A stretch of DNA of 64,000 nt from a virus, in IMG/VR virus record IMGVR_UViG_3300030329_003201, positions 1 through 64,000 of that record, one strand, 5' to 3'. Under the pieces are notes generated by a model. The model ran no database searches, was not told where the DNA came from, and was given only the letters and a program-made list of their open reading frames with translations. Below are positions 6,909 through 39,996 of this stretch, piece after piece. Position numbers and translations under genes: made by a program. Numbering within the stretch: position 1 is the first letter of the stretch; every line of letters starts with the position of its first letter.

Positions 6909-7338
6909 GAGAGGTGTGCCTGTATGCGCTGTATACAGACACTGGGACGGAAACCCTGAGATAGCAATGGCTGACTTGATTCGCTTCTTAGTAGAGCTTG
7001 AAATCAAGGTGACGGATGGCCCGATGTCAAGGACAGCACTTGACGAACCACGGCTTCTTGCAGCCAGATATGTAGTGTACCTGGCGGAGTTGTTCGCTGA
7101 AGAATGGGACGAGCTTCCTATAAACTTCACTGGTGTTGAGTTTGTGGAGCCAGAATCCTACTGCTTCTACGAATACCATGTGCATTGCGACAGGACAGGT
7201 CCTCTTTCGAGAAACCTTCCAGACATCAGAGCTTATGAACAAGGCTCTCCGATGTTTGAGAACATCGGTAAGTATAGAGTGCAAGCATTCCACGAACTAG
7301 ATCTGACAGATTGCGAAACAAGATTGACCGCAAAGTAG
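6877..7338 (+). CDS. conserved phage hypothetical protein
   Basis: MGTR...VYRHWDGNPE...YEY motif; GAGGCAACC leader. Confidence 0.75.
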   Translation: MGTRCITKFFERGVPVCAVYRHWDGNPEIAMADLIRFLVELEIKVTDGPMSRTALDEPRLLAARYVVYLAELFAEEWDELPINFTGVEFVEPESYCFYEYHVHCDRTGPLSRNLPDIRAYEQGSPMFENIGKYRVQAFHELDLTDCETRLTAK

Positions 7339-7353
7339 TAAAGATGATAGCTA
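7324..7353 (+). promoter_or_regulatory. putative promoter
   Basis: TTGACC followed 18 bp later by TAGCTA with an extended TG. Confidence 0.35.
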
Positions 7354-7385
7354 TATTGGCTACTAACCCAGAAAGGAGGGGTCAA

Positions 7386-7577
7386 ATGGCTCGTAAACCT
7401 GCACATACAATCAAAGTAAACCGTGGCCTTAAGGCGCTGGCTAAAGACACTGACTGTCTTTACAAAGCATTCTTGGCCAGCAACGACGGCGCTACTCCTA
7501 AAGAGCGAGAAGATGTTCGTCACGCACTGAAGTTCTTGTCTGGACTTCACGCATGGTGGTCTGACAAACGGTCCTGA
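7386..7577 (+). CDS. 63-aa basic hypothetical protein
   Basis: Strong AAGGAGG RBS before the ATG at 7386. Confidence 0.7.
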   Translation: MARKPAHTIKVNRGLKALAKDTDCLYKAFLASNDGATPKEREDVRHALKFLSGLHAWWSDKRS

Positions 7578-7730
7578 TGTTGGTTGGGAGTCGCACAGGG
7601 AGGCATGGCGACGAGACAAGAGATGCCTCATCTCAAAGTAAGTAGACCTGGCTCTTAAATTAGAGTGAATGTTTAAGAGTGAAACGGCTGAGCAGGAAGG
7701 CATGTCAGCGGTCGGATAGATGCCTTATTT
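7571..7730. ncRNA. candidate tandem pseudoknotted structured RNA (two covarying units)
   Basis: Two units of CCTG..CAGG-R-AGGCATG-N13-AGATGCCT. Pseudoknot pairs GTCGC/GCGAC (unit 1) and GCTGA/TCAGC (unit 2) occupy identical positions. Confidence 0.6.
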
Positions 7731-7732
7731 AC

Positions 7733-7762
7733 TTGACAAGCAGTACAATAAAATGATACACA
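7733..7762 (+). promoter_or_regulatory. putative sigma70 promoter
   Basis: Perfect TTGACA, then TGA-TACACA, in an AT-rich region upstream of 7802. Confidence 0.5.
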
Positions 7763-7801
7763 ATAATATCCACTAAGGATAAAACAAAGAGGCAACTAAA
7801 A

Positions 7802-8338
7802 ATGGAAAGAGAAATTCAAAACGGTCTTGAGGGACTGTCACACGAAACCTTGGTCGCGATCTCAAAGCTTGTGGATAAGGCCAAGCTTACCGCAGCACGG
7901 GAGTCGATTGATCCTGGCATTCACATCATTGACTTGCTCCTGGTGGGGCAGCTTGAGTTGGAGGTCAAGAAGGACTACATCCGCAAGGGTACGAGTCGCA
8001 TTCCTTACACTCGTGTCATTGCCATGCTTCTTCAGCGTGCGGGAGTGACGGGTGAGGCTTCCCTCAAGGTTCTTGAGGAGGTCTTGAAGGAAGCCCACGA
8101 GATGGGCAAGGACTCCGCCACCGAGCTTGAGAAGGCCGTTCCTGTAGCGAAGGGGCTCAAGGCGTTCTCCGAACTCGTCAACAAGAGTCTCCCACCAATC
8201 GACTGCAAAGGCGCAACTAAAGTGTCGAGCGTTGGGTTGGTTGCTCAAGAGCGCAGGCTTACACGCTCTGAGGCAGAGCTACTGTTCCCCGGCAACGGCC
8301 CACAAGAAGGGCAAGACGAGGTGGCAGATGAAGCTTGA
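7802..8338 (+). CDS. hypothetical protein
   Basis: 178-aa ORF with GAGGCAAC leader. Confidence 0.8.
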   Translation: MEREIQNGLEGLSHETLVAISKLVDKAKLTAARESIDPGIHIIDLLLVGQLELEVKKDYIRKGTSRIPYTRVIAMLLQRAGVTGEASLKVLEEVLKEAHEMGKDSATELEKAVPVAKGLKAFSELVNKSLPPIDCKGATKVSSVGLVAQERRLTRSEAELLFPGNGPQEGQDEVADEA

Positions 8339-10638: not shown

Positions 10639-11031
10639 ATGACCATGGGTAATGAGAACAACAAGCAGAATGGAACGGGTAAGTATGATTTCTTTATATC
10701 AGACCGGCTCGTTGAGAGGGGTATAGAAAATCGTAAAACACGACCAAAGTATTGGTCGGCATGGCAGGAAGATCCTAAGCTGGCCGGGATCGTTGCTTCT
10801 TTTGAAAGCGCATTGGGCGAGCGCCTATCTGTCATTGGCGTCTCAGACACAGGCGTACCGCTACTAAACATTACCTCATCAAGGAAATCCATTCGCGCGA
10901 AAGCAAAGAAAGTAGGCCTTGTTTGGGGCAGGTGGCCTCGTGAATGCGGTTCATTTGTGACGTGCTGGCTTCCAGGTAGGCCCACCGAACCGTTACCGTC
11001 AAACCCATACCTTGCTTCTCAAATGGATTGA
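10639..11031 (+). CDS. hypothetical protein
   Basis: Likely start at 10639 or 10645. Confidence 0.5.
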   Translation: MTMGNENNKQNGTGKYDFFISDRLVERGIENRKTRPKYWSAWQEDPKLAGIVASFESALGERLSVIGVSDTGVPLLNITSSRKSIRAKAKKVGLVWGRWPRECGSFVTCWLPGRPTEPLPSNPYLASQMD

Positions 11032-11055: not shown

Positions 11056-11101
11056 TAAGGTGTCGATAATTTGGTTGCCTCTAGATTACCGACTTTGTGT
11101 A

Positions 11102-11143
11102 CATGCACCCAGAGAGGACCCACCTCTCTGGGTGTCATGCTTT
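11102..11143. terminator. strong hairpin directly 5' of the tRNA
   Basis: Perfect 12-bp stem CACCCAGAGAGG/CCTCTCTGGGTG with a 5-nt loop, extendable by CATG/CATG. Confidence 0.55.
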
Positions 11144-11216
11144 TGGGGTGTAGTTCAATTGGCAGAACGCCTGACTGTTAATCAGGAAGTTGCAGGTTCG
11201 AGTCCTGCTGCCCCAG
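11144..11216 (+). tRNA. tRNA-Asn (anticodon GTT)
   Basis: Cloverleaf: acceptor TGGGGTG/TGCCCCA, D-arm GTTC/GAAC, anticodon arm CCTGA-CTGTTAA-TCAGG, T-arm GCAGG-TTCGAGT-CCTGC. CCA is not encoded. Confidence 0.95.
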
Positions 11217-11221
11217 CCTTA

Positions 11222-11605
11222 TCAAGCCTTCTTCTTGGCAGGAGCTTTCTTCTTAGGCGCTGCCTTCTTCTTGGCAGGAGCCTTCTTCTTAGGCGCTGCC
11301 TTCTTCTTAGGCGCTGCCTTCTTCACGACAACATCATCTGGTGTGCCAAGCTTTCCATCATCACCAGGCATAATCTCTACATCGATAAAACCAACAGATG
11401 CCTTTGCGCTGCCCGATGTTCCGCTAAGTTCCAGTGCATAGATATGCGCCAGCAAATCACGAATAGGTTTGCAATGGCGACACGCGCCACGGTTGTTGTG
11501 TAGACATCGAGATCCAGGGTAATACTCACCGGACTCAGGACAGGCAGTCTGCTTTTCGTATTGTGCAAGCTGCGATTTAGAAAGAAGAGACGGTTGTAGT
11601 GCCAT
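11222..11605 (-). CDS. Cys-containing protein with histone-H1-like Lys/Ala/Pro tail
   Basis: C-terminal repeats of KKAAPK/KKAPAK; N-terminal C..C..CxxC; AGGAG RBS. Confidence 0.8.
   Translation of the reverse strand: MALQPSLLSKSQLAQYEKQTACPESGEYYPGSRCLHNNRGACRHCKPIRDLLAHIYALELSGTSGSAKASVGFIDVEIMPGDDGKLGTPDDVVVKKAAPKKKAAPKKKAPAKKKAAPKKKAPAKKKA
11227..11324. repeat. 18-bp coding tandem repeat (about 5 units)
   Basis: Units CTTCTTCTTGGCAGGAGC and CTTCTTCTTAGGCGCTGC. Confidence 0.9.
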
Positions 11606-25881: not shown

Positions 25882-28800
25882 CTATCGTTCGCGAGGAGGT
25901 TTAATTTCCTTCGCCCTTTGTTTCTCTTCCCATAATAATCGCTCTGTCAACTCTACTTCTTTGGCTTCTGGCGTCTTGACCAGTCTAGGTCTAAAGAATA
26001 CGCCTAGCCGCTCTCCTTCCAAGCCGATCTCAGGGCGCGGACCAACACCTCGTGTCCAATACGAAGAGTCCTCTATTTTGTCGTAAAGGTTCTTGTCTGG
26101 TGTTGTTGGCCCAAACAAGTCTTCTTCTATGTACCCATGGTGCTCTCTGTACTCACGCATCTTGTTGGCGAGATAAAGAACAGTTTCGACATATCCTACG
26201 TCAGCCCTGTCGAACTGAACCCATGAATCCGCACTTCGACCGGATGGAATAATGCCAAAGCGTCTCTCTTTGATGGCGCTTGGTATTTGCGGAATGGAGC
26301 GAATAATCAAGCTTGGCACCGTTTGGTCCAAAGCTTGTCCAATTTTTGGGATTTTACTAACCCAGGTTTCTCCAGGTATATCGATTACTGGAACTGGCAT
26401 TTGTAGCGCATTTTTCCACAACCAGTAGTTTCTTGGATTCTGAGCAACCCAAACCTCAGTTTGCGACGGATATTCTTTCTTCAACTCATTAGTGATTGGA
26501 ACAGGGGTGGCGTCAAGAAAGTCTAGGACGAACAATCCGCCAGTCATATATATATCCAATTCAACAATGCTGGTTGGAATCACGTCTCCAGCGAGCCCTC
26601 GTGTCCTGAAGATTTCCTCGTCAAACATGTATACCAAGGGCTGCTGAAGAAGCGGATTCAGACGAGCCAGGAAACGAAGACCGTTCTCTCTTTCTTCTTT
26701 TGACGCATTGCGATTAAATCCGCCGCTAATAAACGCACCAATCTCTCTGTGTAGATTGATTGCATCCATAAGAGGAACCGGCGCTGCCAAAAATCTTACG
26801 CCTTGGTAAATGCTTTTATTTGCGTGTGCATTCCTAAACAGGACGCTCAGCCTCTGAGAGGTGTAGTCGTCCTCCATGAGGATGCTGCTTCCTTCAGTGT
26901 TCTGCTGGTTCAACCCTCGCATCATCCGAATCTGGGCCATAAGCCTATGTGGATTTGTTACTAAGGTGTCGTAGAAGAGGTTGAGGTTGTTCCTTGTGTA
27001 GGAGTAGAACAGGAATCCTCTTCGCAAAACCTGCTTTTCCCAATCGGTCAACTTCGAATAGTCATACATGGCGTCGGTAGCTGTTTTTGCTGCCTCTGCC
27101 ATTGACCTCCCGTTGTAAAGCTCATCAACAAAGACGCCCGACCTAAAGTAGTTATCAATCGAAGTAGCTGTTTCGACGAGTAACCGCTGTGCTTGGCCTG
27201 GAGCTTCAGCCACAATCTTGTGCCACGCAGCTTCGTTTTTCTCCAAGTCACGAAGCATGTGTGATGCGTTTCCGCTTTTTACAAAAGAGGTGTTTAGCTT
27301 ATAAAGCTTCATTGCATCAAGAAGCATTTCAGTAGTGAAAATGCGACCGTCTTTGCAAACCAAAGCTCTTGCGGAAGAAACGCTGTTAATGTTTGGCCCA
27401 TCACCCCAAAGTCTGGCCGATAAAATTCCCGACAGGCGAGGATGGGCAAGCGCCCCTATAAGACCGCCTTCAATACGCACACCATCTGCGCCAACTTTCA
27501 AACCAAGACCAGATTTTTGGTAGATCTGAAACAGCGAACCAACCGTAATGCCCTGGTAATAATGAACGTTTGGCTGACCAATACCAACCGTTACACCCTG
27601 ACGAAGCATTGAATAGGTGAACCCATAGAGCCTAAGCGTGTAATCAAGCGTGTCCGCAATCAGAATCTTTGCGGCAACGCCTGGCTTTAGTCTTAATTCG
27701 GGGTCTAAGGCTTCATCGCCAAATAGGAATTCTCTTCCAAGCTCTGTCGCAACGTCTTCACCGCGCTTTCCTCGTTTTTCAAAAGCCTCAGCCACCCTAC
27801 CTTTTGCGCCTTTACCAAAAGCCCCCTGTCCGCTTACTCTGTCTATAGCAGCATTTAGTTCATCAAGAACCATTGGAGGAACAAGAGTGCGTGATCCATC
27901 TGGCGCAACCCAATCGACCCAGTCTTCTGTGGCAGATCCGAACTTGAATCCCCAAGCATTTAAGATTTCATGCGCCGCTGTGTAGGCAGCCATGTCATGG
28001 ATGGTATGCGTCTGCTGTGCGCCTTCGGGTGCTTTTAAATCTAGATACGGTATCCGACGTGTATCATCGTCCCAATCCTGACGTGGATAGATTGGATCTC
28101 CATCAGCCGCAGCGCCTGGTTCTGCTGGCCTAACAACCTCATCAATGTCTCCGCGCCGCCCTTCTCTAAATCCAGACGGAGCTTGAATAATGTTTCCTTC
28201 TGCGTCACGAACAATCGCGGCACCGCCTGGACGAAGCTCCATATTTATGTAGTGCTTTACGCGCTCCATAAATCGCGTTGCGTCTTTACCGTTTGCATAT
28301 TGTGAAACAAGATCGTCTGTTCTTGCCGTAATCCCGATTTCTACCAACTTATCAACGAACTTGGCTTGGATTTCTCTGGCCCTCATGCGAACAATCAGTT
28401 GAATCGCGGCATGTCGTGCATCATATGCAGGAAGCACATCTGGTCGCGTTCCAGTCTCAAGACCGTGCTTCTGAGCCCACTCAAAGAGATCCGGCCAATC
28501 ATTACCGTAAAAACTGGAATACAATCGAGACTTCGTCGCGTCATCCATGACAGAGAGCGCTGCTTTTGCTTGAGCGGCGCTACCCGAAATACACTCAACA
28601 ATATCGGTCACTCGTTGATCTAATAGATTGTACCTGTCGTGAAGTCCACGCTCAATAATATCGATACTGTCTCGCAGACCATTGACCTGATGCTTTGAAA
28701 GTTCGACAACATCTTGCTGAATGGCGTCGTCGATTAGATCACGCAAGGCAATAATCGCGGCTCGCTCGCCATCTGTCATTCTTCCGCTTGCAGCAAACAG

Positions 28801-31800
28801 TCCGGTTATTGCATCAAGCTTTGACTCTAACTTTTGAAGCGTAATCGGGTCTGATCCCACTTTTGAGAAGCTGTCCTTAAGCCTCCATACTTGATCTGCA
28901 TTCCGCACATCAAGAGGCGGTGTGAGCATTCTGGTAAGAGACTGGACTACTTCTAAAATACTTCCCTTGCTTCCTTCCTTTTGGAGCCTAAGCTGAACCC
29001 TCATTAACCAGTGAGGAATGTCGTCAATCTCCTGGTCCATTAGCTTTTTAGCTTCTACAAGCTCTGGAGTGACGTAGCCGGTTCGGCTCCAGTATCGTTT
29101 AGAACTGTCACCTTCCAGAACTCCAGCAACCTCAAAGGGTTCAAACACCTTGAACCTTTTCCGAAACCCGGAAATCATTGCCCCTAAAAACGGGACTTCC
29201 TCACCAGCGTCAACGATTGTTGCCCAAGTGCGTTTTACAAGGTTTGGAGAAACGCTTTCTGTAAGCCTGCTCCGTGTTGACCCTACGCCTGCTTCCATGT
29301 CTGTTATAGACTCATGAAGCTTATTGTATTCTACTACAGATATTACAGAAAAATCTGCGTCTGCTTCAAACATCCACTTGGGTACAGTATCCCTCGCTAA
29401 CGGGTGAGCACCAAGCTCTTGAACAAGAACCCTTACCCTGCTTTGTTGTTGACGGTTCAGATCGAAAACAGGTATTTCTACTGGTCTTCCAGTAGCATCA
29501 TCAAACACAGTCTCTGTCCGAATCTTTCCGGTTTCTGGATCACGAAGCCAACTTCCAACTTCATCGCTCATGCGTTGTTGAAGCTTCATTACTCTCTTTG
29601 AATCTGCTAATCTCTGCGGATTACCGAACACTGAGAGCATTTTGTTTGCAACTCGTTCTCGAATCCTTTCAGCACGAATCACAGGAACAATTGTTCTTGT
29701 GGTAAGCCTGACGACTTTTTCTGCACCCCATTTCTTTCGTGCCGCTTCTGCATAAACATGACGAACAGCAAGGCCGACAACGTCCACTGCATTTACTTCT
29801 GTCGTGTCATCGCTAATATTTAGAATCCGTTGAAGCTGGCTTCTTCTTGCCTCAATGCGAGCAGCCTCTCTTCGTTTACCCGCCTGAGCAACTTCTCCGC
29901 CAAGTCCTCGTTTGGTTGTAAGCCTAACTGTGTAGAAATTCTTTAGTTCTCTATCATTCAGAACATCTGCCTTAGCTCTTTCGGAAATATCAATTCCGAC
30001 ATCAAGCTGTTCATCAAAGAACGCAACGGCTTCTGGGCTCAGTTCATCAACCCTATCTGCGCGGATCATCCTCCACATTCTGTGAAGTGCGTAAATGATT
30101 TTTCTGAAGAAGTTGTGTGTTGGCCCATCTTGGGCGTGCTTTGTACTGAAATAGTAGGCAAACGAAGACCCAAGCTCATCCCAGCCTTTGGTGGTCAAGC
30201 GACGTGTACCGTCTGGAAGAACCTCGCTATCAAAGTTTCGGTACATAAACTCTGCAACATCATCAAACTCATCCACCATGAGGCTAGCAAGCATCTTGCC
30301 GCTTTCAGCAAACAGGTGCCTTACATCACCAGTCTCGAAGAACGATTTAGTATGAAGGGCAGCGGCATCAAAGTCGTCAGGTGAGAAATCACGCAGCGGC
30401 TTGAATGGGCTTGAAGGAGGCCCATACATCACACGACCTCGTGACTTAAACGCCCTACCAGCACTTCCTGGCTTTGAAACATCATCCGAATCAACGATGG
30501 TTTTCGGATACACGCCTCTAGATGCAGGACCAATAGACGCAGATGCGGTGCGTCCGTTTCCTGCCAATTCATCACGGGCTTGCGCTTGTTTCAACCAAGG
30601 GTTCGCATCAAGCACTGAGTCCAAAGCAGCGTCAAATGCAAGCGTTCTCATGTTTGGCAAGAATGACGCGCCAGGATGGCTGAACGCATCGGAAGCAAAC
30701 TGACCCTCCAACGTGTCAGCCATTCGCTCAGTTTGCGCCATTGCTGGCTTATGAAGCTCAGTCGAAACATCGCCAACGAGTCTACGATAGTTCGAATCCA
30801 GTCTGGCAATGTTGGACATCCGCCCACTTTCGATGCTCCTAATAAGGAGATTCAGCATCGAGTCGTTACGCCCAAACGTTTTAATCCAACCCTCAATGGT
30901 TTTGTGGGCTTCTAATGTTTTATTTAGTGATTCTAGCCTTTTAGGATTATTATTGTACCTAGACTTGACCTTGTTGATTTGCTTCTGAACAAGGCTTGAA
31001 TCAATGCGGCGAGCATTACCCATCGCGTTTCTTACTTCACTTGGGAACAAGTCCACCAGTTCAGGCATCGCTGCAAAAGCATTTGCGCGTTCAACCAAGT
31101 AGGGCCTTGTCTCAGGATCCGACATCCAAGAATCAAATTCAACATCAGCCCTTTGCTGAAAAATACTTGTCCGCCGTCTTTCGACTGCTTTTTTAAAGAC
31201 ATGATCGAAACCAGCGCGATCTATTTCTCCTGCCTCGAATCTAGATCGGAGATCGGAGAACTGCTTTGTCTGCATTACATCGAAGACAATCCGGTTGTAA
31301 TCAGCCTTTGCGTTGACATGTTTCCACTCGAAAAACCACTGAAGAGCGTCTTCGTGGCCTGGTTTTCCAACACCGTAGAAGTCATCGATTTTCTTTCCAG
31401 TAATGACCGGGGCGTCCGGCGCAAGCCCTCTTGTTAGGGCAACAAACCTATCTGAAAAATCCAACCAAGTTTCATTGGGGTGGCGTTCAAACCAAGAGTA
31501 CTTCTTGTTCCCTTTTACAACATCATTAAAATCACTCGTCATTAGAGTGAGCGTCTTCATGACTGAGTTGTCTGCTGTCATGCCAATAGAGTCAGAAGAC
31601 TCCGCCAGATGTTGAGCAAGCGCTATAGGGGAAGGAGTGACAGCAATCGCATCTACGCGAATCCTTTCCGTCCTAACGTTTTCAAGATCAGACAACAGCC
31701 TTTGTCGAAGCTCCGGTGATTCCACGACTTCCAGCATGTCTACAAGCTCTGACTCGCGAAGAAGCAACCACTTTCTGTTATCAAGAATCCTACCCGCTCC

Positions 31801-34800
31801 GACTTGAGACATTTCGATTGTATCGATGTCGATGATTGGCGCACTTGGCTTTTGCCAATCACGAGCCTTGATCGTATCGAGCAACTCGGGTGCCACGTTG
31901 AGACTAACCAAAGCACCACGATAAGGGTTCTTGAACCTTTCTGTGGCCTGAGCGTAGAATCTCATAATGTACAAAATTTCATTTCTTGTAAGATTAGAGC
32001 CTTTGTTTGAAAGAGCGGTCATATACCTGTCGCCCATTTCATACAATTCTCTAATCGACCGTGGCTGCGTTACAGCCGTAAACACCTGATTTTCAAACAC
32101 TCTTGATGTTGGATCAAGCAGGCTGTGCATTGAACGAGAAGCCAATGCTGTAAGGTACAAATCAAGACGCTGCTGGTATTCCAACCGCTTAGAAGGAATA
32201 AGATTTCCTTCACCATCAAAATACTCAGCAGGATTCGGCCTCAAAGAGTCAACATCAGCGCTCTTCTGCTTCTTGTCGTACAATCCGCCAATGATTGAAT
32301 CGTACTCATCAATGTACTTGTTGATGATCTCTTGAGGGTTTGTAATGTCTGACCAAGAAATATTCCTTGTTTGACCATCAACGGTAATCTCTACGTCTGG
32401 AAGAGATGGCTCTGGAAGCCTTGCATAGTTCAACTCTACAGGACGCATTGATAGATACGTCAGATCGTGAAAAGAGAATGCACCATCTAAGCCGCCAGGA
32501 ATAAGAGCAGGCTTTAGGTCTTTCGTCATCGGAACAACGTCAATCGTTAGACTCACTGGCTGATCAACACCATCAACCTTCGCTTTTACTTTGATTGATC
32601 TTGAAACATCGACAAGCTCAGATGCTGTTCCAAGCGACTCCCGAATCCTATTGACCTGATGAGCCGAAAGCTGAGACAGTGAAACTTGTGCGGAAAGACC
32701 TTTGTTGATGTAGTCGTCAACAGTTTGGTGTGGCGTTCCGCCAGCGACCTCTTCAGCCTGATCCATTTGGTCTAAAAGCTGTTCTGCAAACCGCTTAGGG
32801 CCAACAAGCCTGCGAGCATCTAACGCCTGCCTATCAGGCTGTGAAAGCGGCTCAGGACGAGTAGGCGCTGGCGGGCCGTACATCATGCGGCGATCAGTTG
32901 GAGCCCATGTTCCCTTGTTGTTTACGCTCTTTGCTTGAGCAGGCTCAAACACCATGTAGTGAGTATCGTCTTTAGGGAGCCTCTGTCCTGGCGTCCACTG
33001 CCTTGTTTGCGGGTCATACCTTTCTGCAAAGAACAAATGAGCGTTTGCAATGATGCCATCATAGCCCATCTGTTCGACTACCTGCCGAGCAAACTCATTC
33101 TGGTAACGATTCCCCTCTGGACCCCAACTATTGAAGCGCTTGTTTACCATTCTATCCCAAAATTCCCACGCCTCGATTTGGGTCACGCCGTTTTTAGTTT
33201 TCCTGCCATCTAAGATGAACTTTTTTGTTCGTTCAAGCTCGTCTACAACAACGCCTTCTTTCTCAAGGCGAGCAGCAACTACATCAATGGCATCCATAAG
33301 AGATTCGCCAGTACCATCATCAGCCCACCTAAATGAATGTGCAGCATCTTTCATCTTGCCGTACTGATCTAAAATCAGTGGGTTTTTTAAGCTTAAGTAC
33401 ACAGGGTATGCCTGCATCGCACCATCGGTTTCAAACTCAACCTTTGCAATGAAATCGACAATAAGATCTCGGTATACCTTCCTGACACCTGATGCGTCTC
33501 CATCATCAATAGCTTTGGCGAGCCGAGATTGTTGAGCATCGGTCAGCTTAGAAACATCGCCGGAATTGATAAAGTCTTTTGCTGCATTGATAATGTCAGC
33601 ATCGGTGAAGCCATCAAACTCAACCCTCAGGTTTGACTTGTGCTCATTGAATGCCTTGAACCACTCTGTTCCTTTCTCCATAAATCTTGGGTCTAAGGAA
33701 GAAAACGCATAGTGTTGTGTGAGGTCGTAAATCGAGTCTGTAAAATAAATAGAAGAGCCAAAATACCCTTCTACATTTCCAGGCTGAAACTCCTCAAAGC
33801 TAAAGGGGCTACCGTGGAACACCCGAAGAGGCTTTCCTTGATCGTCTACTACCTTGGAATCCTTGAACCAGGACTTGAACTCCGCAGATGAAGTCGGTGG
33901 TGCTACTGTGCGATCTGGAAGAGGAGCAGGAGGACCATACATCTCCCTCCCTCTCGACCGAACGGGCTCTGTAGATGAGCCTGACATTTTGGCTATGTCA
34001 GCGTCATCAACCATAAACGTTTGCGGATACCTTCCGGCTTCTACGATTGTACGAACCCTGTACCTGTAGCCTTCATCAAACTTTGAAGAACCAGGCAGGA
34101 ACACATTGGCGACATAACCATCAACAACAGACTCTACTTTTTCGCCATCAACGATTGAGGTCACGACATAATTGACCCGATCACCAATATTAAAGTCGGG
34201 CTCGTCAAGCTCCGCACGCTTTGCGTCGTAGCCTCGTATTAGGCTTTCATACTCCTCAATGTATGCTGATTTCCAGTCATCACCCCTTGCGTTGGCATCA
34301 GCACTAAACCTATACCCACCGCCCTCTGGACGGTCATACCCAGTAACGGCGTCCCAGGTTTCTTCAAACGGAGTGAACACAGCGTGCTTTGATTTTTCGC
34401 TGCCGAGAACATAGTCCGATCTAGCAGCCAATCTGGCGTGTCGGTCGATTACGTCAGCATCAGCATCGGGGCGGTATTTAGTCTTCTCAAGCTTTGGAAG
34501 AGCGTCAACCTGGCGCTGGCGGACCCCTTCAAAACTGGGCTCAGTCTCTCTCGCGCCAAACGGAGCGTCATCAACTCTGACAGGCGCTTCTAAGTCTTCT
34601 GCAAACTTACCGGGCAACTCATCATCAAGGCGACGAAGCTCTTCAATAACATCGTCAATCGGTCGCGCGAGATTATCTAAATGATCTGGGCCAACGTCCA
34701 ATGCGTTCCAGCTTTGAAGTCTTCTTCTATTTATTTCAGAAGCATCAGAAAGCTCCGAAGCCTTTCCTTCAAAAAGACGCTCAATATGATGTCGGAACAT

Positions 34801-37800
34801 CGGATGAAAGTCTTCAAATGCGCGAGGATTCTTTCGGTTCATCGCCCGGAAAAGCTTTTTCAAACGAAGAATAAGTCGATTGAAAATCTTTCTTACTGAA
34901 GGGGCAAAATCACTTCTGCTAATGACTTCAGGCATCTTGTTGTAAACAACATACTCAGCAAACTTCTCAGCGTACCACTCGTAAAAACCTACGTTTTTAC
35001 CTTGGTTTTCAAGATTCCATCTTGTGTACGATGTTTCTTCGACCAGCCCAGTACGCTTGAGTTCATCAAAATACACACGCCTAAGATTCGCCACCTCAGT
35101 GTCCGAAAGAAACGAAGTCATAATCGCGTGCCCCATTTCATGGGCAAACGTATACGTCATAAGATCAGTAGTTTGGAGAGCTTCAGCGTGGGCGTCTATT
35201 CGGTTTGCGACCCACCCTTCCGCAGCTTCTACTGGCGCAAGGCCTTCCGCAGCGTCATCAATGAAATCTACAACAAATCCTTTGATGCTGGCGTCAATAT
35301 TTGTGCCGCCGCGCAATGCGTCTCGGTTTTTAATTAGGGCTTCAACAAACTTCTTTTCCCTCAGGTTTACGCCATCCTCAAGCATGCTGTGCGCCATTTT
35401 CCGAACAAGCTGAGGGAAGGTCACGCCTTCTAATACCGAGATGTCACCGTCATTAAGTCTATTGATAAGCTCTTCAAATGTAAGCGCTCGAAGCTTCTCA
35501 TTCTCAAGAAGTCGCATTGGATCCAATGATCCTGCGATTCTTCCTTCCTGGTCGAAAAGCATCATCAGTGAATACACGCGATCACCAGGAAACTTTTTGT
35601 CGATGCCCTCTAAGGTTACAACCTTGGAACCACCGAACGAACCCTCCGGCCCTTCGATTCCCCTGTGTGATGTATCAATCCAGTCATCAAGCTTGATGTC
35701 TCTCAGAACACGAGAAGGAAGCGAGTGAACCATTGCGTACAAGAAGACATACACATCTTCTGGCAGACCTGCTTCCCGAAGATCATCAAGCTTGCTCAGG
35801 AGCGCTTGCTTGCCGAATCCAGGGGTTACTTCAGGAGAAGTTGACTTTGTAGTCCGTTTTATTTCGGCTTGTGCTTTGGCAATATTATCGCGCAAAGTCT
35901 TGATTTTCTTAGTAAAACCAGACTCAGCCTTCATTGTTGAAGTGTATTTAGTGAGCGCGGCACGAATCTTACTGACTGCCGCATCGTCATTATCTGCAAT
36001 CGCCTTGATAAGACGCCTTAGAAGCACAGTGGAGACTATTTGATGCGCTACCTTCGGGTCTGCGATTTTAGAGGCAATCATCACAAGCTGGTCTGCTGTT
36101 AGATCCTCAAGAAGCTTGCCCTCTAAATCGATTGAAGCAACCGACCGAATCCCAGCCAGCCTCCAGCCTTCATCGTCGGAAAGCTTCAGTTGGTCTACAA
36201 GCTCATCAGCAACATCAATGTCAATGAAACGAGGGCCACTTATGGGGTCAAACTTCAACCCAAACGCCTTGAGTAGAGAATCTTCTATCTCAATACCCTT
36301 GAGGTCATCACCATACCGAATACCAAACTGCTTTGCTTCAAAGCCAGCAAGCACTTCGAGAGCATCTTCTACGCTTCCGGTCTTGCTAAGTGCTGCAAAA
36401 TACAGTCTTTCAACCAGCTTCATCTGCACTTTGATAGCGTCAAGCCCTTCATCAGCACCCTTGAGTGTGCCTTTTTCGGCCATGTCTTCCAATCGAGTCT
36501 GGATTCTTTTGTACACTTCAGACTCCTGAAGCTTATCCAACCCTTCGAAATACTTAGATGCATGCAGCCCAAGACGGGAAACAAATGTGCGTCCGCGCTT
36601 TTCAGCCGTTGCGTGAATGATTCTGCGAACGGTTTCAACGGGAAGCCCCACAACCTCAAGCGAATCATAAATCTCTTTCCAATGCGATTTAGGAAGACCA
36701 TGAAAAGGATTTCTGCCCTTTGCAATATTGTCTTCGTAGACTCTTAGAGCCATTTCTCCCCAGGTCGCTGCCACTCCTGGGAATGGGGCATTGATGTCTT
36801 TCGGTCTTCCAAACCGTAAGCTTCCTTCATCGCCTTCAATCCCACGCGCCCTTCGAACATCTCCCCTGGCTTGTCGGGGTGAATAGTTAGACGACTGTCT
36901 GAACTCCCGCTCCAAGCTTCTTCTGGTCGTTCTCCACAGACGGTTGACTTCACTCTGGCTCAAATCATCAACAGTCATTACTGGGGTCGGGCCGCCAATC
37001 TTTGCTGTTTGAGCGTCCATCTTTTCAGCAAGAAGCGCATTTGCGTTTGCGTCGAAGATCTCCTGCGCCCTGGCTTGCCTTTGCGCTGGTGTCACCTGGG
37101 GAGCCACGTCGTTCCAAGCCCACTTAGGGGACCAGGCATACCTCGCGTGAGTACCAAAACTAGCGCCCGGCATCCGCCTAGCGGAGGCGGCATACCTAAA
37201 CGGAGACGCGCCTACACGGAACCCACCTTTTATCATTCCCGTTTCCCAAGGAATAAAAATGTCACCAGCAAAGCCTATGCCGCGCAGTGATTGGACAAAC
37301 TTACCGTCAGGATCAGCGCCTAATCCAACACCCCATTGAGCCAAGGCTCCTTGCAAGCCCCAGTCTTCCGCCTCTGGGTGCAACTTGTACAGATACTCAT
37401 CCGTAAACGCGGCAGGCCGACCTGGCCTGTCATACGCTCCTAAAGTGATTACTTCACCAAGAGGATCCAGCCCGTACCTTTGAATTGCTGTGGCTCCAAA
37501 CTCTGCCACTGCACCAAATATTCTCATACGGTATATAAGCTCAGATTCTTGATGCCAGAAAACAGGGTTCCCTTCTTGATCAACATCAAATCTTTTGTCC
37601 ACAAAAAGATCAGTCCCTATCCCTGCTGCCGTAGACCTACCGTGACCAAAGAGTCTTGTGTGTGCTCCTCGCCAGGCATTGACCGACATGGTGATTTTTT
37701 CATTCGTCCTGTCAACCCTTTCGAGAAGCGGCGCTGGAAGATACCCAAGCGGGGCCTTGTTCAGCACGTCAAATAATCCCCTAAGTCTTGGGATTTCATG

Positions 37801-39996
37801 GTCTTCAACACCTTCTCTTCTGTGACGCGATTTCTGCCTTTCAATAAAGTCGATAATGTTCTGCCCAACATTGGGGGTCAAAACAAAATCGGGATCCTCC
37901 ATTGCTGCGATTTGAGCAAGACTTCCTACAACACTTGCCCACTCGGGCGTCCATTGATCTTGGCCCCGAAGAGCAGCGATGAGATCACTAGAAGTGTACT
38001 CATCCATATGCATCCATCTAAAATGGAGATCTTTTCTGCTGAAGTTAAGCCATGCCTTTCGCAGGTACTCCTGCTTTTGTTCTTCGCTCAAAAAACCCGC
38101 AGAGCTAACATTAGTGCTAACAATACCCCACAAAGTCTTGATCGAATTGGTTCCCCTTGCGTCTTCGATCCCTTGATCAGGGAGAGTATCCAAAAGAACC
38201 CAATCAGCAAGTTCATAAACGGGAGTCGCTAAGGTGGTTGCTAACCTTTGCCCTGCACGAATCGCATCAAAGCCAGCCTCACCGTAGCCAAAAATCCAGT
38301 CGGATGCCTTTACACCACGAGGATTTTCAGCCCAAACAGACCTGTCCAATATCGCTTCTGCTGGTGCAAGGAGGGGATCCCACTTAGACAACCCTCTCAT
38401 AATGTCACTGTCAGAATAATGGGCTAACGATGCACCCCATGTGGCGTCACCCCCCATGTAGTCCAAATACACTTCGCGAAGACTTTGATCGGGAAGCATA
38501 TCAAGATGCAGGTTCTGCATTGCTGTGACAAGGTCATCATCTGAAAACTGAAGCTTGTCTTTAAACTGAATCATTCGAGACAAGGTCTGGTATGCGCCAT
38601 GCGATTGGTTGTTTGTAGGCATCCGTATACCAGTAAAGTCGGTATACGATGGACCAACGTCTATCCAATCAGCCCATCGATCGGATTGACGCCTCTTTCC
38701 CCAAATAAGGGGCTTACCCAGATGGCGACCATCGCCAAATTCGCCGCTTGTTGTCCCATCAATGTAGTCTGTAAGCCAGTCGAACTTGCCATCATGGTAA
38801 GCCCGTCTTGCTTCTTCATAGGCCGTAATATACGCCAGAACTTGGTGTCCTCGGTTTTTCCAGCCATGAAATTGGTAAACGTTCGGATTCTCATCGTCGG
38901 AGGTCATATCTCTTAGCAACAACGACAATGTGTGAACGGTCCTAAGCTCGTCTTCACTCATGTGACCCTGCATCTTAGGTATTCTTGTTACCCCGTACTT
39001 CTGAAATTCCTTCGAACCTTCTTCAACATCTCGAAGCCACCACTCTTCACCAAGATCTTCCTCATTTGCATGAGGGCTGCCTTTGTACAGGAAAAGATTA
39101 ATTCCTGGTGGCATCCAAGACTGACGAGTTTGAGCAAACGTATTCCAGTTCCACTTACTAATATTTTTCGGCGCACCCTTTGTGCCAAACACCGATGTTA
39201 CAAGGCCTGTTACGCCGCCATAAATATCACCTAAGAGTGGAATTTCTTTAACTTTTCTGTCTATAGCGTCTGGTGCTTGCCACAGTTCGTTTTTAATAAA
39301 AGCGCCTGTGCCTCGTCGAACATTCGACCAAAGCTCTTTGCGAGTTTCAATAAGATCCGCTTCTTGAAAAGCCTCGCCCTTTTGCATGTGGTGTAGAAAT
39401 GCGTTCCACCGGCCCATCTCTTCAATGCTGGCCGCAATGTCTTCGCGAATCTGTTGCTGCCTGTCCCCCTCTGCACGCATCTCATGGCTATCAGGACTCC
39501 CAGGCATCTCAATCCGAATCGCACCACGATTCAGAACACGAATCTTTAGGAAATTTCGGTTGTCATGAAGCTGCCCCTCTGCCTCAAAAGCCTCTTTTAC
39601 TTTTTGTTCGATCTCGCCAGCACCAAGTGTGCTTTGACTGTCTATGAAATCAATGACCTCCTCTCTAATCTCTTCGTCGCTCTTCCCTTCAGCCCTAAGC
39701 ATTTCTTCGTAGTTAAGAAGGTTCGTAAACTGTAGGTCAGATAACTCTAACGTGCCATTACTTATCTCTAGCTCAAACACACTAACGTTCTCGCGACGTT
39801 CCTCTTCTTCTTCTTCCTCAAGTTCCTCTTCTGCTTCATCAATTGCACCAGTCAATTCGAGCGTAAGATCGTCAACTTCTGAGGATACGCCAGCGTTGGC
39901 TTTAAGGGGCTCTATGCTGCCTGTTTCATCGGCCTCTTGAATAGCTCTACGAAGGGCGTCTTCTAACTCTCTTTCTTCGTCAGTTGGCTCAGCCAT
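25882..39996 (-). CDS. giant (4704 aa) polyvalent internal virion/ejection protein with zincin peptidase and ADP-ribosyltransferase-like domains
   Basis: Last of the internal-protein block. HEMGH...EWYAEKF zincin; FKSWF.DSKVVD..G.PL..FHGS...YFTD...YPVYL.LKNPL...GYDGII...F.P.Q.KS (ART-PolyVal-like); helical C-terminal region with DYSKLT.WE...FLFYSY. Confidence 0.85.
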   Translation of the reverse strand: MAEPTDEERELEDALRRAIQEADETGSIEPLKANAGVSSEVDDLTLELTGAIDEAEEELEEEEEEERRENVSVFELEISNGTLELSDLQFTNLLNYEEMLRAEGKSDEEIREEVIDFIDSQSTLGAGEIEQKVKEAFEAEGQLHDNRNFLKIRVLNRGAIRIEMPGSPDSHEMRAEGDRQQQIREDIAASIEEMGRWNAFLHHMQKGEAFQEADLIETRKELWSNVRRGTGAFIKNELWQAPDAIDRKVKEIPLLGDIYGGVTGLVTSVFGTKGAPKNISKWNWNTFAQTRQSWMPPGINLFLYKGSPHANEEDLGEEWWLRDVEEGSKEFQKYGVTRIPKMQGHMSEDELRTVHTLSLLLRDMTSDDENPNVYQFHGWKNRGHQVLAYITAYEEARRAYHDGKFDWLTDYIDGTTSGEFGDGRHLGKPLIWGKRRQSDRWADWIDVGPSYTDFTGIRMPTNNQSHGAYQTLSRMIQFKDKLQFSDDDLVTAMQNLHLDMLPDQSLREVYLDYMGGDATWGASLAHYSDSDIMRGLSKWDPLLAPAEAILDRSVWAENPRGVKASDWIFGYGEAGFDAIRAGQRLATTLATPVYELADWVLLDTLPDQGIEDARGTNSIKTLWGIVSTNVSSAGFLSEEQKQEYLRKAWLNFSRKDLHFRWMHMDEYTSSDLIAALRGQDQWTPEWASVVGSLAQIAAMEDPDFVLTPNVGQNIIDFIERQKSRHRREGVEDHEIPRLRGLFDVLNKAPLGYLPAPLLERVDRTNEKITMSVNAWRGAHTRLFGHGRSTAAGIGTDLFVDKRFDVDQEGNPVFWHQESELIYRMRIFGAVAEFGATAIQRYGLDPLGEVITLGAYDRPGRPAAFTDEYLYKLHPEAEDWGLQGALAQWGVGLGADPDGKFVQSLRGIGFAGDIFIPWETGMIKGGFRVGASPFRYAASARRMPGASFGTHARYAWSPKWAWNDVAPQVTPAQRQARAQEIFDANANALLAEKMDAQTAKIGGPTPVMTVDDLSQSEVNRLWRTTRRSLEREFRQSSNYSPRQARGDVRRARGIEGDEGSLRFGRPKDINAPFPGVAATWGEMALRVYEDNIAKGRNPFHGLPKSHWKEIYDSLEVVGLPVETVRRIIHATAEKRGRTFVSRLGLHASKYFEGLDKLQESEVYKRIQTRLEDMAEKGTLKGADEGLDAIKVQMKLVERLYFAALSKTGSVEDALEVLAGFEAKQFGIRYGDDLKGIEIEDSLLKAFGLKFDPISGPRFIDIDVADELVDQLKLSDDEGWRLAGIRSVASIDLEGKLLEDLTADQLVMIASKIADPKVAHQIVSTVLLRRLIKAIADNDDAAVSKIRAALTKYTSTMKAESGFTKKIKTLRDNIAKAQAEIKRTTKSTSPEVTPGFGKQALLSKLDDLREAGLPEDVYVFLYAMVHSLPSRVLRDIKLDDWIDTSHRGIEGPEGSFGGSKVVTLEGIDKKFPGDRVYSLMMLFDQEGRIAGSLDPMRLLENEKLRALTFEELINRLNDGDISVLEGVTFPQLVRKMAHSMLEDGVNLREKKFVEALIKNRDALRGGTNIDASIKGFVVDFIDDAAEGLAPVEAAEGWVANRIDAHAEALQTTDLMTYTFAHEMGHAIMTSFLSDTEVANLRRVYFDELKRTGLVEETSYTRWNLENQGKNVGFYEWYAEKFAEYVVYNKMPEVISRSDFAPSVRKIFNRLILRLKKLFRAMNRKNPRAFEDFHPMFRHHIERLFEGKASELSDASEINRRRLQSWNALDVGPDHLDNLARPIDDVIEELRRLDDELPGKFAEDLEAPVRVDDAPFGARETEPSFEGVRQRQVDALPKLEKTKYRPDADADVIDRHARLAARSDYVLGSEKSKHAVFTPFEETWDAVTGYDRPEGGGYRFSADANARGDDWKSAYIEEYESLIRGYDAKRAELDEPDFNIGDRVNYVVTSIVDGEKVESVVDGYVANVFLPGSSKFDEGYRYRVRTIVEAGRYPQTFMVDDADIAKMSGSSTEPVRSRGREMYGPPAPLPDRTVAPPTSSAEFKSWFKDSKVVDDQGKPLRVFHGSPFSFEEFQPGNVEGYFGSSIYFTDSIYDLTQHYAFSSLDPRFMEKGTEWFKAFNEHKSNLRVEFDGFTDADIINAAKDFINSGDVSKLTDAQQSRLAKAIDDGDASGVRKVYRDLIVDFIAKVEFETDGAMQAYPVYLSLKNPLILDQYGKMKDAAHSFRWADDGTGESLMDAIDVVAARLEKEGVVVDELERTKKFILDGRKTKNGVTQIEAWEFWDRMVNKRFNSWGPEGNRYQNEFARQVVEQMGYDGIIANAHLFFAERYDPQTRQWTPGQRLPKDDTHYMVFEPAQAKSVNNKGTWAPTDRRMMYGPPAPTRPEPLSQPDRQALDARRLVGPKRFAEQLLDQMDQAEEVAGGTPHQTVDDYINKGLSAQVSLSQLSAHQVNRIRESLGTASELVDVSRSIKVKAKVDGVDQPVSLTIDVVPMTKDLKPALIPGGLDGAFSFHDLTYLSMRPVELNYARLPEPSLPDVEITVDGQTRNISWSDITNPQEIINKYIDEYDSIIGGLYDKKQKSADVDSLRPNPAEYFDGEGNLIPSKRLEYQQRLDLYLTALASRSMHSLLDPTSRVFENQVFTAVTQPRSIRELYEMGDRYMTALSNKGSNLTRNEILYIMRFYAQATERFKNPYRGALVSLNVAPELLDTIKARDWQKPSAPIIDIDTIEMSQVGAGRILDNRKWLLLRESELVDMLEVVESPELRQRLLSDLENVRTERIRVDAIAVTPSPIALAQHLAESSDSIGMTADNSVMKTLTLMTSDFNDVVKGNKKYSWFERHPNETWLDFSDRFVALTRGLAPDAPVITGKKIDDFYGVGKPGHEDALQWFFEWKHVNAKADYNRIVFDVMQTKQFSDLRSRFEAGEIDRAGFDHVFKKAVERRRTSIFQQRADVEFDSWMSDPETRPYLVERANAFAAMPELVDLFPSEVRNAMGNARRIDSSLVQKQINKVKSRYNNNPKRLESLNKTLEAHKTIEGWIKTFGRNDSMLNLLIRSIESGRMSNIARLDSNYRRLVGDVSTELHKPAMAQTERMADTLEGQFASDAFSHPGASFLPNMRTLAFDAALDSVLDANPWLKQAQARDELAGNGRTASASIGPASRGVYPKTIVDSDDVSKPGSAGRAFKSRGRVMYGPPSSPFKPLRDFSPDDFDAAALHTKSFFETGDVRHLFAESGKMLASLMVDEFDDVAEFMYRNFDSEVLPDGTRRLTTKGWDELGSSFAYYFSTKHAQDGPTHNFFRKIIYALHRMWRMIRADRVDELSPEAVAFFDEQLDVGIDISERAKADVLNDRELKNFYTVRLTTKRGLGGEVAQAGKRREAARIEARRSQLQRILNISDDTTEVNAVDVVGLAVRHVYAEAARKKWGAEKVVRLTTRTIVPVIRAERIRERVANKMLSVFGNPQRLADSKRVMKLQQRMSDEVGSWLRDPETGKIRTETVFDDATGRPVEIPVFDLNRQQQSRVRVLVQELGAHPLARDTVPKWMFEADADFSVISVVEYNKLHESITDMEAGVGSTRSRLTESVSPNLVKRTWATIVDAGEEVPFLGAMISGFRKRFKVFEPFEVAGVLEGDSSKRYWSRTGYVTPELVEAKKLMDQEIDDIPHWLMRVQLRLQKEGSKGSILEVVQSLTRMLTPPLDVRNADQVWRLKDSFSKVGSDPITLQKLESKLDAITGLFAASGRMTDGERAAIIALRDLIDDAIQQDVVELSKHQVNGLRDSIDIIERGLHDRYNLLDQRVTDIVECISGSAAQAKAALSVMDDATKSRLYSSFYGNDWPDLFEWAQKHGLETGTRPDVLPAYDARHAAIQLIVRMRAREIQAKFVDKLVEIGITARTDDLVSQYANGKDATRFMERVKHYINMELRPGGAAIVRDAEGNIIQAPSGFREGRRGDIDEVVRPAEPGAAADGDPIYPRQDWDDDTRRIPYLDLKAPEGAQQTHTIHDMAAYTAAHEILNAWGFKFGSATEDWVDWVAPDGSRTLVPPMVLDELNAAIDRVSGQGAFGKGAKGRVAEAFEKRGKRGEDVATELGREFLFGDEALDPELRLKPGVAAKILIADTLDYTLRLYGFTYSMLRQGVTVGIGQPNVHYYQGITVGSLFQIYQKSGLGLKVGADGVRIEGGLIGALAHPRLSGILSARLWGDGPNINSVSSARALVCKDGRIFTTEMLLDAMKLYKLNTSFVKSGNASHMLRDLEKNEAAWHKIVAEAPGQAQRLLVETATSIDNYFRSGVFVDELYNGRSMAEAAKTATDAMYDYSKLTDWEKQVLRRGFLFYSYTRNNLNLFYDTLVTNPHRLMAQIRMMRGLNQQNTEGSSILMEDDYTSQRLSVLFRNAHANKSIYQGVRFLAAPVPLMDAINLHREIGAFISGGFNRNASKEERENGLRFLARLNPLLQQPLVYMFDEEIFRTRGLAGDVIPTSIVELDIYMTGGLFVLDFLDATPVPITNELKKEYPSQTEVWVAQNPRNYWLWKNALQMPVPVIDIPGETWVSKIPKIGQALDQTVPSLIIRSIPQIPSAIKERRFGIIPSGRSADSWVQFDRADVGYVETVLYLANKMREYREHHGYIEEDLFGPTTPDKNLYDKIEDSSYWTRGVGPRPEIGLEGERLGVFFRPRLVKTPEAKEVELTERLLWEEKQRAKEIKPPRER

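Follow-up and report, generated by a model that had tools for sequence, protein, structure and literature searches.

Between two plus-strand open reading frames (ORFs; 7386-7577 and 7802-8338) of the window, that is, the whole 64,000-nt stretch of DNA analysed here, a gap of 224 nt holds two similar and apparently foldable units, and the question is whether these are copies of a genuine structured RNA and, if so, what such an RNA could be doing at the border of two phage genes. The preliminary description of this locus saw in them a tandem pseudoknot element with complete covariation, matching no ribozyme or riboswitch consensus known to its author and with the active strand left unresolved, and it offered a new ribozyme or aptamer, an exonuclease-resistant RNA or a decoy resembling the antitoxins of type III toxin-antitoxin systems as possible functions. 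All of its strings and coordinates are present in the sequence, with the two cores 97 nt apart, and the features of the locus are as follows.

7386..7577, plus strand: upstream ORF of 63 aa, basic, from the ORF list
7571..7629, plus strand: unit 1, minimal form with P3, CAGG and P4 alone
7590-94 / 7608-12, plus strand: P3 of unit 1, GTCGC with GCGAC, pairing read in the sequence
7596-99, plus strand: CAGG of unit 1, invariant across the family
7600-06 / 7623-29, plus strand: P4 of unit 1, GAGGCAT with ATGCCTC
7571-73 / 7615-17 and 7573-76, plus strand: candidate extra pairings of unit 1 (GTC with GAC; CCTG), lost in the related phage L066
7645..7726, plus strand: unit 2, full module with P1, P2, P3, CAGG and P4
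7645-48 / 7710-13, plus strand: P1 of unit 2, GACC with GGTC, the strand at 7645 read by eye
7652-59 / 7672-79, plus strand: P2 of unit 2, CTCTTAAA with TTTAAGAG
7687-91 / 7705-09, plus strand: P3 of unit 2, GCTGA with TCAGC
7693-96, plus strand: CAGG of unit 2
7697-7703 / 7720-26, plus strand: P4 of unit 2, AAGGCAT with ATGCCTT
7733..7762, plus strand: inferred promoter-like site TTGACA-N18-TACACA, 7 nt past unit 2
7802..8338, plus strand: downstream ORF of 178 aa, from the ORF list

The core common to both units, CAGG-R-AGGCATG-N13-AGATGCCT, lies at 7596-7628 and 7693-7725; these two matches in the window compare with 0.01 expected, and none of 100 shuffles reached two. A covariance model made from other phages found exactly two sites in the 73-kb genome, namely unit 1 (33.7 bits, E 5.6e-7) and unit 2 (50.7 bits, the local alignment beginning at 7663), and the core is absent elsewhere in this 99%-complete virus record. 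The earlier claim of two copies only is thus upheld, for the window by the pattern and for the 73-kb record by the model. A third, weak model match at 11384-11404 was rejected, being the 3' half alone in a repetitive stretch with long ORFs on both strands.

The order of parts, read from 78 distinct units, runs from 5' to 3' through P1 (GACC), a P2 hairpin of variable length, a short joiner, the 5-nt 5' strand of P3, R and CAGG, and then through R-AGGCAU of P4, a G, the 3' strand of P3, GGUC of P1, (G)AAU-AG and AUGCCU-Y of P4. Covariation shows the module (about 65-82 nt) to be a three-way junction closed by P1, with P2 as the variable hairpin and P3 as the third helix, the loop of P3 pairing with the 7 bases just 3' of P1 to give P4. 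P3 and P4, which have no bases in common, make up an H-type pseudoknot of 5 + 7 bp.

Searching with a covariance model of 40 compact members gave 92 sites in 85 sources, and 88 distinct rows were scored. Of 1795 pairing cells in these 88 sequences 94.7% are paired, as against 77.7% in shuffled alignments, and the covariation score of 0.466 (0.165 shuffled) was reached by none of 500 shuffles, while controls with slid partners pair at 31-47%; the alignment behind these values was fitted to the model, with most members recruited by a pattern that fixes CAGG and P4. Both sides vary in 17 of the 21 pairs (P1 4/4, P2 5/5, P3 5/5, P4 3/7), and the 7 bp of P4 are paired in 99.4% of cells. The covariance model recovered further members that keep the pairings, and the covariation of the helices across many phages agrees with the preliminary proposal of a selected, pseudoknotted RNA fold. 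The term "complete covariation" was too strong for the two units taken together, between which P3 alone truly covaries. Since G-U cells far outnumber A-C cells (148 vs 17), the gene (plus) strand is read as the RNA, which settles the strand left open before. The minimum-energy fold of unit 2 consists of P1, P2 and P3, while P4, taken by itself, makes a weak hairpin whose loop measures 16 nt. Single-sequence folding energies were no better than those of shuffles (z -1.39, -0.06, -0.87 and +0.26), so the support for the fold is comparative, not thermodynamic.

Because the recruiting pattern fixes CAGG and P4 and the alignment is fitted to the model, relaxed scans were run. With CAGG removed from the pattern, all 73 stretches recovered still had CAGG, and with P4 left free the scan returned AGGCUU/AAGCCU, GGGCUU (G-U) and AUGUCU (G-U) forms, plus 10 chance matches; a variant pattern recovered AGGCAC/GUGCCU forms, 27 of its 39 matches having at least 4 of the 5 P3 pairs. 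The variants of P4 are compensatory (AGGCTT/AAGCCT and AGGCAC/GTGCCT, plus the G-U forms). Near-invariant letters are CAGG, the AGGCAY/RUGCCU of P4 and the YAG ahead of P4, and CAGG is invariant even in a minimal subtype that has neither P1 and P2 nor a CCUG partner. Of 79 members, 31 can pair CCUG in the P2 loop with CAGG in the P3 loop, or 50 if wobble is allowed (about 40-63%), against 9.1 expected, which points to a loop-loop pairing that is real in a subset only. A mini-ORF starting at the AUG inside AGGCAUG was considered and rejected, as its in-frame UAG is replaced by CAG in several members. As separate observations, the 5' strand of P4 is Shine-Dalgarno-like in all family members, and in the window the 3' strand of P4 in unit 1, AGATGCCTC (7621-7629), is complementary at 8 of 9 positions to the ribosome-binding region of the next gene, GAGGCAACT (7789-7797).

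The two units can be judged individually against this family fold. The extra stem reported for unit 2 is present and corresponds to P2 (7652-59/7672-79). The GTC/GAC pairing put forward for both units stands in unit 2, where it is part of P1 and covaries family-wide, and falls in unit 1, where it is lost in L066. Likewise the CCTG letters do occur in both units, but in unit 2 they (7647-50) overlap the GACC of P1, so that the two cannot form together, and in unit 1 they are missing in L066. The 5' part of unit 1, with its GTC/GAC and CCTG/CAGG pairings, overlaps the end of the 63-aa ORF, whose stop codon TGA (7575-77) falls within it; L066 has GAGCCTAA where the window phage has GGTCCTGA, with GTC and CCTG both gone and different codons. 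Given this removal in a relative, unit 1 is a minimal form, kept as such in three related phages.

Two more subtypes occur among IMG/VR loci L310-L339 (e.g. L320:12219-12255 and L324:8422-8459), with the core CAGG-R-AGGCAC...AG-GUGYCU. The first has the full architecture, with a P3 pairing CCGC/GCGG. The second, on contigs of 27-61 kb, is minimal: P1 and P2 are missing, the long loop contains a small hairpin that covaries, and downstream come AACCCAUUAACACACAC, a Shine-Dalgarno sequence and a conserved 67-aa gene, or else recA-like genes.

With regard to novelty, Rfam 15 at gathering level matched nothing in the window other than a tRNA at 11144-11216, and within 7450-7850 at E<=10 it gave four chance-level matches (12-15 bits against gathering scores of 37-49.5), in line with the earlier statement that no known ribozyme or riboswitch consensus is matched. 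A tRNA-like reading of the units was rejected, ARAGORN finding only the tRNA-Asn at 11144. No published description of the module was found in the literature searched. The main text of PMC10690425, in its available part, does not describe the module; it reports an IMG/VR catalogue of 8,495 unnamed candidate structured RNAs ("DNAVirus_X") with a mean length of 67 bases. The module comes from the same data source and falls in the same size range as these candidates, to judge from that part of the paper, and the catalogue may already contain it.

A search for the exact core gave 91 contigs of IMG/VR and at least 117 from marine metagenomes, many of the latter being Tara scaffolds. In 185,579 prokaryote genomes (one per species) a relaxed pattern gave 105 stretches, which is about the chance level by a hand estimate. 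The covariance model, run on 100 of the 105 (L131-L230, with L231-L235 left out), gave a top score of 28.4 bits, and of the roughly 104-105 matches only L232 shows the full architecture, as judged by eye. L232 is a 57-kb contig of a Proteobacteria MAG and is probably a phage binned into it. Searches with blastn, using one family member and the window region, gave no GenBank phage matches, and the closest relative of the polymerase among 50,697 phages has 24% identity. The matches in IMG/VR and marine metagenomes, the single real match in prokaryote genomes and the lack of a GenBank phage together place the family, as far as database sequences go, in uncultured ocean phages.

In every case inspected the module is located between co-directional ORFs and has the same orientation as the flanking genes, which are of early or replication type, an SSB-like gene and a DNA polymerase being the commonest pair. 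In the commonest order the module is preceded by a protein of about 180-200 aa, whose tail is either acidic or of the form PPPxxAQGIVS, and followed by a family A DNA polymerase with a fused UDG domain; among the other neighbours are helicases, RecA-like proteins, PhoH, a cold-shock protein (csp), tRNA and small ORFs. The upstream proteins of about 180-200 aa (L012:4324-4869 and relatives) are without a Pfam match. The structure model of this protein has an OB-like fold (pLDDT 77.5), its best solved match is the ssDNA-binding PrgE of plasmid pCF10 (Foldseek E 3.2e-4, TM 0.39/0.51), and there are also leads to DUF669; judging from the model, these OB-like proteins are probably the SSB of these phages.

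By crude ORF calls (>=60 codons), 39 of 83 instances have the start of P1 at -10 to +10 nt from the upstream stop, and in 45 of 82 a start codon follows within 25 nt of the module. A tRNA gene begins 7 nt after the module in L045, L048, L049 and L060. In a sample anchored on the polymerase, the module lies upstream of polA in 33 of 71 loci, and among 25 distinct polA junctions free of it, 11 show direct stop/start adjacency, 6 a plain hairpin with a U tract, and the remaining 8, a G+C-rich group, coding sequence up to the start. The SSB-like/polymerase junction was also seen in three states across L253-L265, L270-L278 and L274, namely adjacency (TAAttaGTG), a hairpin with U-tract terminator, and the pseudoknot module.

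Usually there is one copy per contig and no promoter directly upstream, tandem copies being found in 10 of the 117 metagenome loci listed. Rows of up to three copies in which every copy has a U tract behind it occur in L015, L267/L333, L373 and L389/L454, the row of three being at L267:2156-2439 (= L333). In some metagenome loci tiny ORFs are flanked by copies, after which comes a conserved GTCTGTCACA.. box resembling a promoter, in a cassette-like arrangement.

For the neighbours in the window, PHROGs, Pfam and PADLOC gave nothing usable, and none of the four flanking ORFs has a family in Pfam or PADLOC; the upstream 63-aa ORF belongs to no Pfam, PHROGs or PADLOC family, and the downstream 178-aa ORF has a sub-threshold RHH_3 match at its N-terminus (E 0.002, 18.5 bits against a cut-off of 21.6). 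L066 and L088 both retain the two boxes of the promoter-like site beyond unit 2. In the window the pattern TTGAC-N16-20-TACAC has two matches (7733 and 11028) against 0.43 expected, a count that 7 of 100 shuffles reach, and a generic sigma-70 scan found no promoter at 7733-7762. The second of these sites, TTGACA-N16-TACAC at 11028, is upstream of a hairpin leader and the tRNA-Asn gene (11144-11216), beyond which 11222-11330 holds tandemly repeated GGCGCTGCCTTCTTCTT.. units where ORFs 11222-11605 (minus) and 11060-11503 (plus) overlap. Farther on, a single 4704-aa ORF occupies 25882-39996 (minus) in a minus-strand block.

We tentatively favour, at slightly less than even confidence, the reading of the module as an element of xrRNA-like architecture that acts in cis on message boundaries or stability. 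This is suggested by its position and topology, by the ordinary terminators that take its place in relatives, and by its U tracts and tandem copies. A U tract follows P4 in 38 of 88 members (control windows: 10 of 522), and a larger set gives 67 of 163 (41%). The module is like Rho-independent terminators in having a U tract in about 41% of cases and in taking the same SSB-like/polymerase junction in related phages; it departs from them in its conserved sequence, in being a pseudoknot rather than a short-looped hairpin, and in having no U tract in most members.

In xrRNAs the long-range pseudoknot forms between the loop of P3 and the strand that lies 3' of P1, so that P4 of the module would be equivalent in position to xrRNA PK2. 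Class 1a xrRNAs, as portrayed in the available portion of PMC8571300, have a P1-P2-P3 junction, two pseudoknots with a long-range one of 2-7 bp, conserved sequence and tandem occurrence. The module has a P1-P2-P3 junction too, and its P4 (7 bp, with compensatory variants) is a long-range pseudoknot within that range. As far as the accessible parts of PMC8571300 and PMC13556198 describe them, the flavivirus class 1a xrRNAs share with the module a length of about 70 nt, the three-way junction, interwoven pseudoknots, conserved sequence and tandem copies. There is, in contrast, no sequence or model similarity between the two; PK1 of the xrRNAs involves the 5' end, and no such pairing is seen in the module, which instead has, in a subset of members, the P2-loop CCUG to P3-loop CAGG pairing; and with a bacterial host the part of the 5'-3' enzyme would fall to RNase J. 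Among the functions proposed in the preliminary description, the exonuclease-resistant one would appear to fit this architecture best, given the three-way junction with a pseudoknot from the P3 loop to the 3' tail, the size of about 70 nt and the sometimes tandem arrangement.

PeSL cassettes of T4-like phages, as presented in the available part of PMC4122927, consist of a stem-loop directly followed by an early promoter, at the borders of small variable genes. The window locus is similar in its promoter-like site 7 nt after unit 2, as are the metagenome loci whose copies flank small ORFs; however PeSLs are simple hairpins present many times per genome, whereas the module has two copies in 73 kb and a conserved pseudoknotted fold.

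Under the boundary reading, the units would be a phage-specific RNA module, transcribed within the plus-strand early message, whose knotted fold would stop exonucleases or processing at the border of two cistrons and, where a U tract follows P4, would end or attenuate transcription as well, thereby giving the flanking genes different RNA lifetimes and levels. Protection could run 5'-3' in the manner of xrRNAs or 3'-5' in the manner of terminator hairpins. In the window, the tandem pair would close a small cassette with the 63-aa gene, just ahead of a promoter-like site for the next gene. Several results argue against this reading: a U tract is missing from 96 of 163 members, 43 of which lack a near start codon as well, a generic terminator scan of the window gave nothing at the units, P4 alone is a weak hairpin and the folding energy does not rise above that of shuffles. 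A purely mechanical role would also leave the near-invariance of CAGG and AGGCAY/RUGCCU unexplained, and such invariance of letters usually indicates a bound ligand, a bound protein or catalysis.

The module could instead be a leader regulator of the downstream gene, either an aptamer (riboswitch) or an operator for a phage protein, that gates ribosome access or read-through, which we regard as rather unlikely. The invariant letters of P4, CAGG and YAG are typical of binding pockets, the neighbours are genes of replication and recombination (family A polymerase with UDG, helicases, RecA-like and OB-fold SSB-like proteins), and 89 of 163 instances have a start codon no more than 35 nt downstream, which in 23 of the 163 is an AUG within 15 nt, reached through a U-rich spacer and with no Shine-Dalgarno sequence in the examples read. 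The minimal subtype, moreover, is followed by a fixed CA-rich spacer and a Shine-Dalgarno sequence and keeps its 67-aa gene downstream whatever gene lies upstream, which is easier to reconcile with a 5' leader regulator than with a 3' end element.

The operator of T4 gene 32 has a geometry of 5+7 bp. This leader operator, mentioned in section 2.6 of PMC10690425, is matched by the module in its H-type pseudoknot, its place in a phage replication-gene message, the unstructured leader that comes after it and the adjoining gene for an ssDNA-binding protein. The module is nevertheless 3' of the SSB-like genes and not 5' of them as the operator is, it has the extra P1 and P2 and an unrelated sequence, and some of its phages and sites, the window among them, have no SSB neighbour. 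Against a riboswitch or operator, the downstream genes are of mixed function (tRNA, promoter, small ORFs, polymerase, helicase, recA, phoH, csp), and no switching alternative pairing is evident, P3 and P4 sharing no bases. The window phage itself has no start codon for 76 nt after the module and no family A polymerase, nor did it give a DUF669 match in a weak search whose controls likewise gave no signal.

It is improbable that the module is a new class of self-cleaving ribozyme cutting polycistronic early transcripts between cistrons, although its size (about 65-70 nt), its double pseudoknot, its roughly 20 near-invariant letters and its strictly intercistronic, sense-strand position would suit one, and small ribozymes found in phage metagenomes share such size, fold and position. 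Since no known ribozyme family is matched, the class would have to be new. There is, however, no candidate cleavage site and no conserved unpaired catalytic core, the core is kept in the minimal subtype without P1 and P2, and nothing in the sequence is specific to catalysis. A ribozyme or an aptamer is possible, with nothing in the sequence that speaks specifically for either; it is the invariant core, together with the minimal subtype that travels with its downstream gene, that keeps a ligand- or protein-responsive leader and a ribozyme in play.

A trans-acting small RNA or decoy, including a repeat of the type III antitoxin kind proposed earlier, is highly improbable. Like ToxI, the module comes as tandem structured units (in those 10 metagenome loci) in a phage-related context, the U tract after P4 could be the 3' end of a small RNA, and the 3' strand of P4 is complementary to the Shine-Dalgarno-like GAGGCA. 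Yet that anti-Shine-Dalgarno-like strand is buried in P4, and a single copy per contig with no promoter directly upstream is the rule. The units are not near-identical repeats of 34-36 nt as in ToxI (no direct-repeat family longer than 13 nt exists in 7300-7900), Pfam and PADLOC show no adjacent toxin-type gene, and the family neighbours are replication genes, so that the antitoxin-like decoy is not supported. Least probable of all is a single-stranded DNA signal of the replication module, such as a priming site or origin, for while the module adjoins SSB-like, polymerase and helicase genes and its strand asymmetry would fit folded ssDNA too, the many G-T wobbles (148 cells) and the pseudoknot topology are typical of RNA, the orientation always follows the flanking genes, and the window phage carries the module away from any recognisable replication gene.

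Structured RNAs that are so conserved and covarying are rare, and most known ones are ribozymes, riboswitches or nuclease-blocking folds; to our knowledge, a topology of this type has so far come from the xrRNAs of eukaryotic viruses. We consider it possible, with more doubt than confidence, that the module is the first class of xrRNA-like RNA in bacterial viruses or, failing that, a new class of ribozyme or riboswitch. It appears confined to uncultured marine phages without a close isolate, where it sits in their replication gene clusters, and at about 70 nt it offers a concrete object for work on nuclease resistance, termination, ligand binding and cleavage, with a possible further use in synthetic operons as a compact part for insulation or stabilisation. 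If it is such a new class, many uncultured ocean phages would shape the fate of their early and replication messages with this module, and CAGG-R-AGGCAY would be its functional centre.
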